DNA of 64,000 bases from Bdellovibrionota bacterium (GTDB taxonomy: Bacteria; Bdellovibrionota_C; UBA2361; CALJRW01): NCBI GenBank assembly GCA_041740355.1, contig JBGSMD010000063.1, forward strand, positions 32,001 to 96,000, written 5' to 3'. Of this stretch, positions 13,282-64,000 are shown piece after piece. A program made the translations under genes and the position numbers. Each line of letters opens with the position of its first letter. The stretch's first letter is position 1. Under the pieces are notes generated by a model. The model was given only the letters and a program-made list of their open reading frames with translations, was not told the DNA's origin and ran no database searches.

Positions 13282-13427
13282 GAAAATTACTTTTTGTCAT
13301 AACTATAAAATAAGTCGCCTAAGAGATATTAAGTGCGAAGCACTTGTAGCGACCCTAAGTGGCCGCTCAGGCGTAAATGCATATTTTATAGGCATTTTAT
13401 CTGGGGAAAACAAATATACTAAAACAT
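13282..13427. repeat. Family B half plus family C element
   Basis: gaaaattactttttgtcataactata followed by agtcgcc...ttaagtgcgaagcacttgtagcgaccc...ggggaaaacaaatatactaaaac. Confidence 0.75.
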
Positions 13428-13539
13428 CAAAGCAAATTTTGATTATTTGGCAAAAGATTTCTTTAAACATTTATGAACTACTAGCTTGGGGAGCCCCTCT
13501 TTTAATAACCTTAAAGTAGGATTGCTCAGTAAGCAAAAA

Positions 13540-15138
13540 TTATGACGCTAATTCTAACTCTAATGGCAAAAATAAATGCTGTTTCGGCGGACGCCCCACT
13601 GATAGTGCTAACATATTATCAATTAAATTTTGATGACTCCAGTTGCTTTGCTCTAGCATCACTTTTTTTACTTCTTTCGGGAAGGCTGCAAATTGTTGGT
13701 AGCAATAAGCACTTTCGCTTTGATACTCAGATGCTCGAAGATTTAAATCAATCACATTGTCAGTAGTTAAAGGACGAATACCATCAAATCGATATTTCCA
13801 AATATCTAGAAATTGTGGATGTTGGTCTTTTAAATATTCAGGAAATTGTTCGCGATGACTCTTGGAGAGTTCAACAAACATCACGCACTCTCTTAGATGG
13901 GAGTAAATTGTATGTTTCATCGTACCGATACGCAGGCTTGAGGCCGCAGCTAAGCTGACAGGAAAAGTTTCATCACTACAATTAATTGCTCTCACAACTG
14001 TTGTTAGCGATTGAAATGCGGATCCCAGTTCATCTCTAGCAATTGCAATATCAGAACTATTTAAGTTAGTGAGGACATGCATTTTTGCCTCATGACCTAA
14101 ACCCATATTCGGGTAGAGGATATTGGTTAACTGTGCTTGGATTTTAAAAACATCTTTAGCGCTTTGTAAAAAACGGACATCGCCAGATGTTTGTCCAACT
14201 TGAAATAAAGCAACCCCCATGGAGTTACAACAATCAACAAAGTTAGAGGCATTTTCTTTAATAATTCTGAATAATGGATTTCGTATTTGATCACTGGCAG
14301 GAAATAGTTGTCTCCTTAAATCTGTATCAAAGTTAAAAGGGCGAAGAGGAGCCAATAATGAGTAGATCTCAGGATAATCTTTCATTCCATGTTGTATAAA
14401 TAGCTCAATTCTGGAAGCGACCATAGTCTGTGATAAGCATGCTTGCAAAATTCTTGCATCAGGACTTATATCCAGCCTAAGTTTTTGATAGTACTGATCA
14501 AAAGGATCTAATGCTTGACAGGCAGTTAAATAATTTTTCTTTCGAAAACAATCATAAGCTAATTCAATTGCTTTTTTGAGCATTGGAATGAAGGGGGGAT
14601 TAATTAAATCTTTCAGTTTATCTAGTGAAAAATTAGCTGGCTTTTCAGTTTCAATATTTGTTGCAGGAAAAAGTCTCTTTAAGTCTTGAGCTAAATACTC
14701 CCGAACTAAAAACAAAGGATGGCTTTGAGGTACTTCCGCTGTCTTGGAAAGATAAAATTCAGTCTGATTAAAATATCCCTGATGATAGTTCACTTCTGCA
14801 AGTACTATATTGAAATCTCTTTTATTTTTTAAAGTTGAACATTCTAAACAGGCATGAGTCCAACTCTCAGCTTGTTCAAATTGGTTAAAAATAATTTTCA
14901 GTCTTATATAATTCACTAATGCTTCGCTTTTTTCATTAGGAATACTTTTAGTTATTTGGTCGATCTCTTTTCTTGTTAGGTTGGCATGCGGTTGAATTCC
15001 AAGCTCTAATTCTAAGAGAAACTTCTTTTCCCTTAAGTTATCAAGATCGGCATTAAGAATTGAAGTCCTAGGCAAAGCTGCACTGGAGATGGATGATGGG
15101 ATAATGATGGACTGACCGATGTTAACTTCTTCTGGCAT
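13540..15138 (-). CDS. Hypothetical helical (TPR-like) protein
   Basis: 532-aa ORF; LAEVNYHQGYFNQTEFYL and MGVALFQVG segments are TPR-like. Confidence 0.65.
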   Translation of the reverse strand: MPEEVNIGQSIIIPSSISSAALPRTSILNADLDNLREKKFLLELELGIQPHANLTRKEIDQITKSIPNEKSEALVNYIRLKIIFNQFEQAESWTHACLECSTLKNKRDFNIVLAEVNYHQGYFNQTEFYLSKTAEVPQSHPLFLVREYLAQDLKRLFPATNIETEKPANFSLDKLKDLINPPFIPMLKKAIELAYDCFRKKNYLTACQALDPFDQYYQKLRLDISPDARILQACLSQTMVASRIELFIQHGMKDYPEIYSLLAPLRPFNFDTDLRRQLFPASDQIRNPLFRIIKENASNFVDCCNSMGVALFQVGQTSGDVRFLQSAKDVFKIQAQLTNILYPNMGLGHEAKMHVLTNLNSSDIAIARDELGSAFQSLTTVVRAINCSDETFPVSLAAASSLRIGTMKHTIYSHLRECVMFVELSKSHREQFPEYLKDQHPQFLDIWKYRFDGIRPLTTDNVIDLNLRASEYQSESAYCYQQFAAFPKEVKKVMLEQSNWSHQNLIDNMLALSVGRPPKQHLFLPLELELAS

Positions 15139-59814: not shown

Positions 59815-62151
59815 ATGATTAATTTAAAAGTTTTGATTGGCTCAACTAAGATTAATTATAATCTTATATCTTTAATTCTAGCTCTTACTTGTGTCCATCT
59901 GAGCATTTCACAAATAATTTCTAGTGAACCAATAAGTGGCTGGGACACTCCAGGGCATCTCTACTTAACATATAAGATGCAAGAATTCTTAGGATTAGGA
60001 ACCTGGTTTGGCTATGATTCAAGCTGGTTCTCAGGCACAGCTCTCTTTGTGCTGTATCCACCACTAACATATATATTAATTAACATATTACATCTTATAA
60101 CTTTCTCTTCTGATCTAACTTATAGTTTTAACCTATTTATTTACCTTCAAGCTCAATTATTAGTAATAATTTTTTACTGGATAACAAAATATATTTTAGG
60201 TGTCGAATATCGGAAATATGTGATGTTGGTGCTCACCTTAATGTTACATACAAACATTATCTATTCGACCCACTTTATAGGATTAGCAGGATTATTTTAC
60301 GCAGGCTTTCTATCAAATTGTACAGGGCTAATTCTATTCTTGCTGCTATTTGCACAAATCAGAAAACTGGAATTAAACATTATTAGCTCCTCTTATACTT
60401 CAATATTAATATTGAGCTTGATTTTACTTAACCATATAATCTCAGCAATATTTACTTTAATATTTATATCAATTTACTTAGCCCTTCAGGGAAATTCAAG
60501 GGTAGCGAAAAAATGGTTTGCTGTTATCGCAGTCGCTTCGCTGGTTGCTTCCCCTTATTACTGGATATTTATTGCCAATCTAGAATTTTCATCCTCAGAA
60601 GCTATCGGGCTTCACGGATCTTTTCCCGATCCCTTATTAGTCCTCTTTCCAAATCTTAATATTGAACATTTTGTGAATATGTTTAATGCCGAATTTAGCG
60701 ATACCTTCAGTTTTTTTAACTATAAAATCGAGTTGCCATTAATCATCAGTCAATTTCCATATTATGCGCTGATTGCTTTTTATTTTGGAATTAAAGGAAG
60801 TCTTCTAATTGTTAAAAGTCAAAAAAAACTACTGGGGTTTCTTTTTACAATTACTATCCTCTTCATATTCTTACCTCGCGCTTACTTAACAAACCTAACT
60901 AGCCTGACAATCCACTACTATCGCTTTACTGGCCTGCTGAGTTTCATGTTTATTTTTATAATTGCCTCTGGGATTAAACATTCTGACTACACACATAGCA
61001 ATTTGAAAAAAATACTCGGAGGTATATTTCTTGCTCTGATTTTACTACTAACAACGTCGTATCAGATGCTTTTCATTAGTGATTCTAGACATCAAGAATT
61101 TAAGCTACACCTGAGCGATTATCAAGGATATCAAAACCTAGATAAGGTTGCTAAATACCTTAAAGAGAACAATCTAACTGCAGGTGTTGCAATTGAGCAA
61201 AGCTATAATTTCCTCCTACAAGTCGGTTCCCTTCATGCCGTTTCATATCTTTTCCCGCATAAGTATAAAATCCCAATCAAGACTGGACTACTAGCTGAGT
61301 CAGCTTATTACTCGTCATTAATTAATCCCACTTTAGGTCTTCAAACAAATCACATGGTTTGGGGAAGTAAAGAATTATACCTTTTTAACTATTTTAATAA
61401 CCCAAAAAAAAATCCGAATTTATTTATTGAGAAGCTAAGGCTTTTAGGAGTAAAAGTATTAATCACAACAGATCGGGACAGCTTCAAAAAAATTAAAACC
61501 CTAACTCTTCAAAATCGTTTTCTAGTACTAAATAAAAAGATTGCTAATTATGCTATATTTGTTTTGCCAGAGTTGTCCCTAAAGAAAACCAACTCAATCA
61601 AGCCCCGATATCTATTTTTTGATTCAAAAGAATTAGCATTCAAAATGTTTTTTAGAGACTGGTTTGCTTATGATTCAACGATTAATTTTAACCTAGTATA
61701 CGATTACTTCAATTTGACTCAAAAAGATCCTAGCTTATTAAGTCAATTTTCAGGATTAGTCTTTTCCGCTGAGAATACAAATTCTTGTCTTAAGAATTAC
61801 GAAAAGCTGAAGAGCTTGCAAGGTGATCTGAATGAAAAGTTAATCCCCTTAATTGATCAACAAAACCAGCAGCAAGAAAACCCAGCAATCCAAAAGCATA
61901 AGAGAGACTTTTATGATTTAGATATTATTTTCTTGGGTAAGAAGTGTTTTAAAGATCCGAACTGGAAAGTTAAGTGGATTAAAACAAATAATCCAGAAGA
62001 GAGAATGGCAAAACTAACAAAACTAGTTCAAAAAAATAAGCTAAAAATTCTCGTTAATAATAGACTGATTAATACGGAAGATACGTTTAGCCCACTAAAT
62101 GGTAATAATTCATTTATCCAAACCCCGTTTTTTACTCTAAAGGTTAGGTAG
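59815..62151 (+). CDS. Multi-pass membrane protein, GT-C glycosyltransferase-like (PTPS-related domain)
   Basis: GWDTPGH...WFSG..LFVLYPPL loop after TM1, more than 10 TM helices, YYRF, GLLAES. Confidence 0.7.
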   Translation: MINLKVLIGSTKINYNLISLILALTCVHLSISQIISSEPISGWDTPGHLYLTYKMQEFLGLGTWFGYDSSWFSGTALFVLYPPLTYILINILHLITFSSDLTYSFNLFIYLQAQLLVIIFYWITKYILGVEYRKYVMLVLTLMLHTNIIYSTHFIGLAGLFYAGFLSNCTGLILFLLLFAQIRKLELNIISSSYTSILILSLILLNHIISAIFTLIFISIYLALQGNSRVAKKWFAVIAVASLVASPYYWIFIANLEFSSSEAIGLHGSFPDPLLVLFPNLNIEHFVNMFNAEFSDTFSFFNYKIELPLIISQFPYYALIAFYFGIKGSLLIVKSQKKLLGFLFTITILFIFLPRAYLTNLTSLTIHYYRFTGLLSFMFIFIIASGIKHSDYTHSNLKKILGGIFLALILLLTTSYQMLFISDSRHQEFKLHLSDYQGYQNLDKVAKYLKENNLTAGVAIEQSYNFLLQVGSLHAVSYLFPHKYKIPIKTGLLAESAYYSSLINPTLGLQTNHMVWGSKELYLFNYFNNPKKNPNLFIEKLRLLGVKVLITTDRDSFKKIKTLTLQNRFLVLNKKIANYAIFVLPELSLKKTNSIKPRYLFFDSKELAFKMFFRDWFAYDSTINFNLVYDYFNLTQKDPSLLSQFSGLVFSAENTNSCLKNYEKLKSLQGDLNEKLIPLIDQQNQQQENPAIQKHKRDFYDLDIIFLGKKCFKDPNWKVKWIKTNNPEERMAKLTKLVQKNKLKILVNNRLINTEDTFSPLNGNNSFIQTPFFTLKVR

Positions 62152-62154
62152 TAG

Positions 62155-62313
62155 CTAGTTATAATTCATTTTATCTGCTGTAAATTTTAATTTTTGTGAG
62201 CTAGCTCTTCCCATAGCAGTTACGGCAACGATGGTTACGATAGCGATTAACGCAACAAGTAGTCCATACTCAACTAATGATGCCCCTTTTTTATTTTTAT
62301 TTATTTTTTTCAT
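62155..62313 (-). CDS. flp: Flp/Fap (type IVb/Tad) pilin, 52 aa (not in ORF track)
   Basis: MKKINKNKKG|ASLVEYGLLVALIAIVTIVAVTAMG...: Gly at -1, Glu at +5, Tyr at +6. Confidence 0.9.
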   Translation of the reverse strand: MKKINKNKKGASLVEYGLLVALIAIVTIVAVTAMGRASSQKLKFTADKMNYN

Positions 62314-62364: not shown

Positions 62365-62961
62365 TTAAATATCTAATTTTTTGCAATTAAGATGGAAATT
62401 ATTAGGTAAATCTACAGTTAGTGTAAACTGATATGCGCCTGCTACTGCTATATTTAATTTAATATTCTGACTGTTTTCGCCATTGAAAAGTGTAAAATCT
62501 TGATTCAAAGTAAGATTAGATCCCTCTTGTTCGAATCCAAATACAAAAGGGCTAGTCCAATCTTGATCTGCGATTTTAAATTCATACTCTCCGGGAATTA
62601 AGGGTAATACTACTCGATAGTTATTCCCGCCAACTGGCAAAAGCTGATTATAAGCTCCCGCTTTCCAATTCTCAATTCGATTAACACGAAGAAACACATT
62701 ACGATCAATACTTTTTATTGGATTATTAGCACTATTTTCTTGCGTAATTGGATTAAAATAAACTACAACGGCCAATAATAAGATTACAAGAAAAATTATC
62801 CCTCCAAAAATCTTGGCATAAGATTCCATCTTTTTCCTAAACCTATATTGTTCTGCGAATTTTTTTAAATTAGCAGTGCTTCTTGATCGAACCGAATCTT
62901 GAATAACATCGCCCAGACCTAATTGATCCTGTCTTTTAAACGTTCTTTTATTAAATATCAT
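62365..62961 (-). CDS. Membrane-anchored protein with a pullulanase X25/SusE-like carbohydrate-binding domain
   Basis: One TM helix, then VFLR...NW...GEYEFKIADQDW...FG...GAYQFTL. Confidence 0.6.
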   Translation of the reverse strand: MIFNKRTFKRQDQLGLGDVIQDSVRSRSTANLKKFAEQYRFRKKMESYAKIFGGIIFLVILLLAVVVYFNPITQENSANNPIKSIDRNVFLRVNRIENWKAGAYNQLLPVGGNNYRVVLPLIPGEYEFKIADQDWTSPFVFGFEQEGSNLTLNQDFTLFNGENSQNIKLNIAVAGAYQFTLTVDLPNNFHLNCKKLDI

Positions 62962-63273
62962 AACTAGCTAAGTTTATCAGATAACGAATTAGAATTACAG
63001 ATAAGATCTACTGTAAAGTATCAAATATTATCGGTTTATTCGTTACAAGCTAATCACAACAACCACAGGGCCCCTAATGAAAGGGATCAGAATGACCTGA
63101 TTATTCAATCCATTTGAATTATCTTTACAATTAGAAAATGGATTAATTCGATACAAACGTTATGAATTGTTAGCACTCTGGTTTAGGTGTATATTTATAT
63201 TTGGTTGGTTTGTGCAACCTATCGATTAGAACATATTAAAAAAGACAAACGGACCCAATCAGCAATCTTAGTA

Positions 63274-64000
63274 ATGAACCTACTGCAAAAACTCTCCTCC
63301 CGTGAAAACTTTTTAGCAATCCTTGATATTTTAAAAAGTAAAAAAAAATCAAAATCTTGGATTCTACAATCTGCCCCGATTGAAAAATCAATATCGCTTG
63401 CTTGGTGTATTTATAACCAAGACTTACTTATCAAGTATTATTTAAAAAACTTAAGAAATCATTCCTATCGCCCACAAGTAAGAATTAAAATGACTATTTT
63501 TATAGATAAACAAAGGATTATCTATAATATTAACTGGGTTGATAAAATTATGGACTATGCCCTGACTAAACTACTTTTTGATGTCAGTGCGGAATTTTTC
63601 TCCGATCAATTATTTTCCTATCGCCAAGGATTTTCTAATAAAAAAGCAGTAAAAAGCCTCTGTAAATATATCAAGAATAATCAAGGCTCAGAGATCTACA
63701 TTGCCAAACGAGATATTAAATCATACTTCGATAATATTAATAGCGGGATTTTAACCTCACAAATTAAGGAGAAATGTGGCGAGCAAGATTCCTTTTTTTG
63801 GAAACTTTTAAGTAGTTTCTTACAACCAGAATATTATGATCCGGAGCTAGATCTTCAGGAGCAACTACTTCTAGGAATACCAACTGGATCTTGCATCTCT
63901 AACTTTGCTGCGAATTTTTATTTGCACGACCTTGATCATTTAGCTGTAAACAATTTAGACTTTTATGTTCGCTATGGAGACGATATAATTTTTGCTGATC
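63274..64000 (+). CDS. Reverse transcriptase, group II-like or unclassified, partial (not in ORF track)
   Basis: Frame open from ATG 63274 (GTG 63187 possible) to the edge: YRPQ, RIIYNINWVDKIM, FSYRQG, AKRDIKSYFDNI, GIPTGSCISNFAANFYL..LD, YVRYGDDIIF. Confidence 0.92.
   Translation, partial: MNLLQKLSSRENFLAILDILKSKKKSKSWILQSAPIEKSISLAWCIYNQDLLIKYYLKNLRNHSYRPQVRIKMTIFIDKQRIIYNINWVDKIMDYALTKLLFDVSAEFFSDQLFSYRQGFSNKKAVKSLCKYIKNNQGSEIYIAKRDIKSYFDNINSGILTSQIKEKCGEQDSFFWKLLSSFLQPEYYDPELDLQEQLLLGIPTGSCISNFAANFYLHDLDHLAVNNLDFYVRYGDDIIFAD

Follow-up and report, generated by a model that had tools for sequence, protein, structure and literature searches.

A reverse transcriptase operon at the end of the window

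The stretch of DNA analyzed here, referred to throughout as the window, comprises 64,000 nucleotides (nt) of a Bdellovibrionota bacterium (GenBank assembly GCA_041740355.1; positions 32,001 to 96,000 of contig JBGSMD010000063.1, or G000:C63:32001-96000, where G000 is the genome). At its far end begins a gene for a reverse transcriptase (RT), the first of three overlapping genes in an operon that continues with a membrane protein of predicted MOP fold and a phospholipase D (PLD)-superfamily protein predicted to be exported. The plus-strand open frame (63187/63274..>64000) runs off the window end, and the 242 codons at 63274..64000, the 5′ part of the RT gene, are the sole part of the system inside the window. 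Beyond the window the frame goes on for a further 605 nt with no stop and no frameshift, yielding a whole protein, P0001, of 443 amino acids (aa). The two closest homologs (71% and 52% identical) likewise begin with MNLL, in support of the ATG at 63274 as the start codon. Already the fragment matches Pfam RVT_1 (E 1.4e-13, 51 bits against a cut-off of 29.6), and the full protein does so at 1.2e-19 over residues 78-301. The initial annotation of this DNA had recognized the RT from a series of motifs, and LSSRENF, YRPQ, RIIYNINWVDKIM, FSYRQG, KRDIKSYFDNI, GIPTGS, and YGDD are all present in the translation in the order quoted; its distance of 312 nt to the divergent upstream gene (62365..62961, minus strand) is likewise exact. 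This spacer (62962..63273) is the presumed site of the operon promoter.

The remainder of the system is best described on L002, a 19-kb segment around the window end (G000:C63:93001-112000), whose positions convert to window positions by adding 61000. On the plus strand lie the whole RT gene (L002 2274-3605), the gene for the 744-aa membrane protein P0002 (L002 3553-5787), which overlaps the RT gene by 53 nt, and the gene for the 576-aa two-HKD PLD protein P0003 (L002 5784-7514), which overlaps the P0002 gene by 4 nt. A candidate structured noncoding element of about 140 nt follows on the same strand (L002 7518-7657), starting 4 nt after the PLD stop codon. The annotation had placed the partners of the RT outside the window, and this is where they lie: conserved genes and a structured RNA directly downstream in the next DNA.

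This arrangement recurs at 16 loci, made up of 15 places in 12 of the 124 phylum genomes searched (three are paralogs within G000) and one marine contig. A membrane gene with 8-11 segments and a length of 670-820 aa stands directly after the RT at 16/16 loci, two of them cut by a contig end. Thirteen loci extend far enough to show a third gene, and each of them has one, of 530-720 aa with a single hydrophobic segment at the N-terminus; a 14th locus has it cut. It is PLD-like at 12 of the 13, the exception being locus L015. Genes of the triad overlap by 4-53 nt. A FastTree phylogeny of 150 RT rows, from which 7 duplicates had been removed, shows loci of known context dispersed through both of its halves, and the operon therefore probably accompanies the RT family as a whole.

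Catalytic residues and lineage of the reverse transcriptase

An alignment of 157 family RTs shows the catalytic residues to be retained throughout. D147, D236, and D237 are invariant in 157/157 sequences, K79 is present in 156/157 and R81 in 154/157; the RT4 motif reads G-x-P-T/S-G and the RT5 motif R-Y/F-G-D-D, with Gly in 123/157. The usual steric-gate position, five residues after D147, holds Gly in 72, Thr in 49, and an aromatic residue in 14 of the 157 proteins, and is preceded by an invariant Tyr or Phe. A nonaromatic residue at this position may relax sugar selectivity.

The family is sharply bounded. A profile built from 33 RTs and searched against the 124 genomes finds 15 full-length places in 12 genomes, at 200-511 bits; all other RTs in these genomes score at most 127 bits, over fingers and palm only. 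A metagenome scan in which 80 loci were kept yields one family member at 500 bits, the other 79 being other kinds of RT at 140 bits or below. Exhaustive profile searching returns 110 cluster representatives (50% identity) at E≤1e-30 and 1039 at E≤1e-10, and nearly all of the best 150 matches are about 400-490 aa long. A word-based homolog search with the RT returned only two close relatives. Taken on its sequence, the RT is a stand-alone, nonintron enzyme with intact catalytic residues and a lineage of its own.

Two other RTs came to light in these searches. Among the weaker matches to the family profile is P0143, an 834-aa protein in which two RT domains are fused in tandem, each with YADD. 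Genome G009 holds at least seven equal-scoring copies of an RT of about 442 aa in 1.9 Mb, on several contigs (for example, L031 and L134), presumably a proliferating group II intron.

The closest label on offer among defense models is UG26, and an ordinary UG26 member (“DRT other”) acting alone, with the downstream genes incidental, is the reading that this label invites. RT_UG26 is indeed the top PADLOC match for P0001 (6.3e-33, 112.1 bits, model positions 68-390 of 398), and it matches all 33 family members scanned, at best at 1.2e-42. A generic RT model nearly ties with it at 111.8 bits, however, and CRISPR-associated RT, UG17, and Drt9 models follow. Ten more distant family members give a UG26 match at E≤1e-25 in four cases and none in six. 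Over the 124 genomes the model awards the unrelated multi-copy RTs of G009 128 bits, against 77-112 bits for the family, and it also matches in the control genomes of Escherichia coli and Bacteroides thetaiotaomicron. Since it scores unrelated RTs higher and matches the controls, the model is nonspecific and its match shows no membership, for which reason we reject the assignment.

According to PMC9226505, UG26 is a class 2 UG/Abi group of 35 members, 9 of which have a Vsr-like (YcjD) endonuclease as partner. Such a partner is only partly defining, most UG26 members being without one; no Vsr-like endonuclease is seen in the open reading frame maps of the 16 loci, nor among the Pfam-scanned neighbors at some of them. 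The downstream genes can hardly be incidental, because they are conserved at 16/16 loci, and we regard a solitary UG26 enzyme as very improbable. No PADLOC, NCBIfam, or Pfam model specifically captures the family RT, and the description of this enzyme as belonging to a poorly characterized class holds to that extent: no defense-RT model gives a specific match.

A group II intron RT, or the decayed remnant of one, is the other obvious candidate, and structural databases do point in this direction. Against the PDB, the nearest sequence-profile match is the GsI-IIC group II intron RT (1.2e-31, 113 bits, palm and fingers only), followed by Cas6-RT-Cas1 and a 499-aa RNA-dependent DNA polymerase (9ioa, 2.4e-27); matches to the G2L4 chains (3e-16, 62 bits), Drt2, retron RTs, and AbiK lag far behind. 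The NCBIfam group II RT/maturase model TIGR04416 aligns over residues 54-366 of P0001, but its 107.4 bits fall far below the cut-off of 300. Pfam gives RVT_1 only, with no GIIM maturase domain. An Rfam scan of L002 1-9000 at E≤10 finds no group II intron family, returning two chance-level matches to unrelated families, and no GTGCG intron 5′ end occurs on either strand of the 312-nt spacer, as had been reported. The RT gene overlaps flanking genes that are themselves intact, and the three copies in G000 are 30-36% identical in their RTs rather than nearly identical. The absence of intron RNA families, of GTGCG, and of GIIM, together with the low TIGR04416 score, leads us to reject the intron reading as far as these searches reach, with scarcely any credence left to it, and upholds the initial annotation in calling this a nonintron RT. 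The findings that could have overturned that call were looked for; neither an intron domain V/VI, nor an early stop, nor placement in a well-characterized clade with its canonical partners was found.

The membrane protein and the phospholipase D partner

P0002 has no match in Pfam, NCBIfam, or PADLOC, and a word-based homolog search returns only its ortholog in G001, a sister species. Protein-language-model look-alikes come from Wzx/polysaccharide-synthesis, MatE, and MurJ clusters. An AlphaFold2 model built with 13 family sequences has a predicted local distance difference test (pLDDT) score of about 80-90 for residues 1-450 and is poor for the C-terminal 290 residues or so. Foldseek comparison of this model with the PDB gives 41 matches at E≤0.001, with E down to 2e-6; those listed are MATE transporters, the WzxE flippase, MurJ, and other MOP members, with one entry untitled. 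Most chains give target-normalized template-modeling scores of 0.54-0.68 across some 440 columns, and four give 0.36-0.48. On the predicted structure, residues 1 to about 450 are thus a 12-helix fold of the MOP superfamily (MATE/Wzx/MurJ). Membrane proteins across the family are only 10-28% identical, and apart from Met1 a single residue is invariant in the 13 aligned sequences, namely Glu57 of the first membrane helix. This acidic residue occupies the place that the coupling residue has in MATE transporters. For the C-terminal domain, the ESM Atlas gave no usable match, and a complex prediction of the RT with this domain scored 0.00, a value that counts neither for nor against binding.

P0003 has a signal-peptide-like N-terminus (MKSK..., a hydrophobic run, then LHA|E), and the N-terminal hydrophobic segment is found in 12/12 aligned third-gene partners. 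This segment predicts a protein that is exported or anchored and whose catalytic part lies beyond the cytoplasm. Pfam PLDc_2 matches residues 377-486 at 2.4e-16, and the nearest named models are the nuclease NucT and DrmC of the DISARM system. The 12 aligned PLD partners carry two HKD motifs, in which H265 and K267 are invariant (12/12) and H445 and N462 are each conserved in at least 90% of rows. The AlphaFold2 model (pLDDT 82.6) matches two-lobed PLD-superfamily folds with E down to 2.7e-13, including bacterial PLD, PPK1 C-terminal lobes, vaccinia F13, PLD1/2, PLD3, and phosphatidylserine synthase. Sequence motifs and modeled fold together identify P0003 as a two-HKD PLD-superfamily protein; the modeled fold alone does not discriminate between lipids and nucleic acids as substrates. 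In the G012 triad, the third gene (L015 4932-6524, minus strand) encodes a protein of 530 aa with a possible lipoprotein signal and no detectable PLD domain.

Structured RNA elements beside the operon

The element that follows the PLD gene at the window locus is 85% identical between G000 and G001, and 93% identical in its 3′ 86 nt; the DNA of the RT, membrane protein, and PLD genes is 71%, 62%, and 64% identical, respectively, all below the element. It folds with a z-score of -3.0 and has no Rfam and no tRNA match, so that a tRNA or tmRNA was rejected as its identity. As a block it is single-copy in both G000 and G001, which rules out a repeat or mobile element. Promoter and terminator scans around the elements gave nothing above shuffles.

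A weak nhmmer match led to a third copy (L011 4695-4843), beside the triad on contig C11 of G000, where it lies on the strand opposite to the RT and about 280 nt upstream of it. From the three sequences RNAalifold predicts 32 pairs, of which 8 are compensatory, 3 of these in a 10-bp terminal stem in which AAGAGUUGGG/CCCAACUCUU pairs with AUGCUGGGCA/UGCCCAGCAU. Paired cells amount to 91.7%, as against 32-51% with partners slid, and 0/500 shuffles reach the observed covariation, both figures applying to a structure derived from the same alignment. A never-varying G-U pair and several other G-U pairs favor the given strand. The covariance model R1 made from these copies finds only the three sites on which it was trained, each beside a triad, among the 16 loci and 124 genomes, and run unfiltered at L012, L047, L048, and L054 it finds nothing real. 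On C11, a 385-aa gene (L011 3420-4577, minus strand) with no Pfam match and about two membrane segments has the element 117 nt upstream on its own strand, and might be linked to it.

In a second, distant RT clade, represented by G010 and G094, a different element of about 200 nt lies directly upstream of the RT and on the same strand (L052 8030-8221; L028 ~880-1075). It has an 11-bp closing stem and 46 predicted pairs, of which 9 are compensatory and none broken. Its model, R2, finds one site in each of the two genomes and otherwise one weak match (E 0.006) in a genome without the RT. Covariation thus supports a putative private structured RNA in two clades, with three and two copies. Another sequence of note is a 155-nt, nearly perfect hairpin (L016 9672-9826, plus strand; z -8.8) directly after the PLD gene of G051, which could be the RNA of that clade or a terminator.

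An RNA in the 312-nt spacer upstream of the RT was also considered. This spacer is not conserved in G001, where a different upstream gene ends about 44 nt before the RT; its lack of conservation argues against a conserved upstream RNA at the window locus, and the candidate was rejected.

Distribution and genomic neighborhood

The module is accessory, being patchy across relatives and multi-copy in some genomes. For instance, G000 has three triads, on contigs C63 (the window locus), C11, and C16, the last with its PLD gene divergent from the RT. These paralogs share the 30-36% RT identity given above, 29-31% in the membrane protein, and 35-36% in the PLD protein. The single triad of G001 is closer to that of the window, at 71%, 58%, and 61% protein identity for RT, membrane protein, and PLD, respectively. 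No copy of the module turned up in G002, whose genome (91% complete) comes from a species of the same family. Plasmid and phage collections yielded no family member, all matches there being partial ones to intron or retron RTs that stayed below 80% query coverage; viral contigs (IMG/VR) yielded none either, with one partial match to a nonfamily RT. A scan of genome contigs found only the G001 contig. The window locus itself occurs in three DNA contig runs of one study, with no RNA or raw-read runs listed.

Twenty neighboring proteins scanned with Pfam are of housekeeping or envelope type, 5 of them without a match. They include leucyl-tRNA synthetase (LeuRS), a menaquinone enzyme, KAS III, a CRP-type regulator, a thermolysin-like protease, an ABC ATPase, and phosphatases, as well as two GT-C-type glycosyltransferases, PMT_2 at L047 and GT87 at L013. 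Large surface proteins with SdrD-B repeats flank the triad of G082 (L047 13458-17999, minus strand), and SdrD-B-repeat proteins also flank that of the marine contig (L054 4923-7517, minus strand, and 13417-14730, plus strand).

Around the window locus, a Flp-type pilin-like gene of 52 aa (62155-62313, minus strand) lies just upstream of the RT and adjoins the divergent gene at 62365-62961 (minus strand), which encodes a membrane-anchored protein of 198 aa that shows a weak, pullulanase-X25-like similarity (E 0.002). Another gene, at 59815-62151 (plus strand), encodes a polytopic membrane protein of 778 aa that Pfam does not match; it recurs in G001 (L013 1-2087, minus strand), at 72% identity and within about 3 kb of the triad in both genomes. 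It stands on opposite sides of the triad in the two, and the region has therefore been rearranged. In G001, the GT87-like glycosyltransferase lies between the gene for the 778-aa protein and the PLD gene.

Possible mechanism and role

These observations can be drawn together into a four-part module: a cytoplasmic RT, a small structured RNA, an inner-membrane MOP-fold protein with a cytoplasmic C-terminal domain, and an extracytoplasmic two-HKD PLD protein would act in sequence. In the first step, the RT would take the adjacent RNA as template or primer and make a DNA or DNA-RNA product; that it copies or primes on the RNA is suggested by analogy with retrons, DRT2, DRT3, DRT9, UG2, UG28, and UG3+UG8. 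The product, or a signal derived from it, would then go through or act on the MOP-like protein, a role assigned to this protein because the RT is inside, the PLD outside, and the membrane protein the sole conserved link between them. Finally, the PLD protein would cut or transfer phosphodiester bonds in the periplasm, whether in the exported product, in envelope lipids, or in nucleic acid. In the most literal version of this scheme, the RT copies the RNA into DNA or a mixed polymer, the MOP-fold protein exports it, and the PLD protein trims it or transfers it onto an acceptor outside; we consider this version unlikely.

The broader reading that we favor, with a confidence that stays somewhat short of even, is a new RT-and-RNA system in which RT, membrane, and periplasm are mechanistically coupled and which serves in conflict, for example, in phage defense. 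A patchy, multi-copy distribution and fast-evolving partners fit conflict systems, and by analogy with these a conflict or defense role would be the most likely one for the module.

Several considerations weigh against the coupled system or its role in conflict. The features of a working transporter, an enzyme exported in advance, and nondefense neighborhoods fit an export or envelope pathway, and no recognized defense protein occurs among the 20 neighbors, a small sample scanned with Pfam alone that shows no sign of a defense island. We know of no precedent for a 12-helix MOP transporter moving nucleic acid, and the product, its transport, and the phenotype are all parts of the mechanism that we infer. 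The RNA is not simply part of the operon transcript, since the C11 copy lies upstream on the opposite strand, and the other 11 loci give no match to model R1 or R2. Long-range inverted repeats do occur beside the RT or PLD gene at 10/15 loci, compared with 66/339 control windows (19%), and several such stretches have folding scores well under those of shuffled sequence (z -2.7 to -8.8, with one at -0.2); this enrichment is modest and suggestive only. The third gene at L015 lacks the second HKD motif in the alignment and has no Pfam match. Longer, fused forms joining the RT and the membrane protein did not appear in the word-based homolog search, a negative that carries little weight.

A defense role need not involve export. 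In a retron-like guard, the RT and its cDNA would restrain the membrane protein and the PLD, interference by a phage would free them, and damage to the envelope would kill the cell in abortive infection. An RT, an RNA with paired ends, and adjacent effector genes make up the retron layout, and this layout is seen here in the two clades with a candidate structured RNA. Patchy and multi-copy occurrence fits a guard as well, as does the faster evolution of the partners (58% and 61% between G000 and G001, against 71% for the RT, and 10-28% for membrane proteins across the family), and PLD and membrane effectors are found in known defense systems, DrmC, whose models match P0003, being an example. 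Against this, P0002 has the full 12-helix fold of a working transporter, with an invariant acidic residue in its first helix, unlike small pore-forming effectors. The PLD protein would be exported before any trigger, so that a cytoplasmic RT-cDNA complex could not sequester it directly, and the 20 Pfam-scanned neighbors hold no defense genes. On balance a guard without export seems to us possible, if doubtful.

The same transporter-like features raise the prospect of an envelope or secretion pathway with no part in defense, by analogy with envelope polymers that are synthesized in the cytoplasm, flipped by Wzx or MurJ, and coupled in the periplasm. Here the MOP protein would flip or export a nucleotide-containing or phosphodiester-linked product of the polymerase, which the PLD would then trim or attach on the outer side, and the RNA may be a template or merely a regulatory element. 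The order of cytoplasmic polymerase, MOP-fold protein, and periplasmic PLD is strictly kept in overlapping genes. The GT-C-type glycosyltransferases (L047, L013), the SdrD-B proteins (L047, L054), and the Flp pilin in the window are neighbors of a suitable kind, and a steric-gate position that is mostly Gly or Thr, and aromatic in only 14/157, may relax sugar selectivity. Such a pathway has no precedent, however; neighbor content varies between loci, and a housekeeping role poorly fits presence in 12/124 genomes. We judge it quite unlikely, and return to the coupled conflict system as the preferred reading.

Implications

To our knowledge, almost every bacterial RT lineage with fixed partners has proved to work in an unforeseen way, with retrons, DRT2, DRT9, and AbiK as examples. 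The present lineage is large, with at least 110 clusters at 50% identity, and lies outside every curated model. It would pair an RT and a private RNA with two proteins predicted to act at or beyond the inner membrane. Should a product or signal cross that membrane, reverse transcription would be linked to the cell envelope, which would be new biology; should the module be a defense system, it would embody a new effector logic. An RT-made polymer that is truly exported would define the first RT-driven export or surface-modification pathway and the first nucleic-acid cargo of a MOP-superfamily transporter. The compactness of the module, 5.4 kb including the RNA, makes heterologous testing straightforward.

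Comparison with known systems

The RT resembles those of group II introns most closely in fingers and palm, and shares with the G2L RTs the lack of an intron RNA. It differs from the intron enzymes in having neither intron RNA nor maturase domain, and from both groups in its YGDD motif, YADD being found in group II introns and YIDD in G2L4. The operon also does not resemble the queuosine-pathway gene context of G2L RTs set out in PMC8632793.

Retrons offer the closest parallel in organization. They too combine a stand-alone RT with conserved, co-encoded non-RT partners and an accessory distribution, and the adjacent structured RNA predicted in two clades, its ends paired in a terminal stem of 9-11 bp, would be a further likeness. 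The RT itself is not retron-like in sequence: the retron St85 model gives P0001 34.4 bits against a cut-off of 235, PADLOC retron RT models reach at most 42 bits, and retron structures match the family profile at only 1e-11 to 1e-7. It is also about 120 aa longer, with a conserved C-terminal region. The partners, a 12-helix protein of predicted MOP fold and a PLD protein predicted to be exported, set the module apart, neither having been found reported as a retron effector in the literature searched, and at the window locus the RNA comes after the last gene rather than before the RT.

The UG/Abi RTs (UG26; DRT9/UG28, UG17, DRT2, and DRT3) are likewise intron-less proteins of about 400-500 aa, and P0001 has weak full-length similarity to the UG26 model. 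Several UG RTs use a noncoding RNA, 5′ in UG2 and UG28 and 3′ in UG3+UG8, and some have membrane partners, according to the main text of PMC9226505. The present family differs in its partner set and in having no UG/Abi model specific for it. The words PLD and phospholipase are absent from the main text of that paper.

As for the partners, P0002 shares the predicted fold of its membrane domain with MOP transporters but has no sequence-family match and carries an extra C-terminal domain of about 290 aa without look-alike. P0003, with its modeled two-lobed HKD fold, resembles PLD enzymes such as Nuc/NucT, DrmC, PLD3, and cardiolipin synthases. No MOP-transporter or PLD family was found reported in an operon with an RT in the literature searched. 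Nor did this literature yield a description of an RT combined with both kinds of partner, in a search that did not extend to the supplements of PMC9226505 or of the myRT preprint, which could list members under another label. An RT working with an RNA and partner proteins is a kind of system already known; what appears new here is the RT lineage, the set of partners, and the location of the output in the cell envelope.

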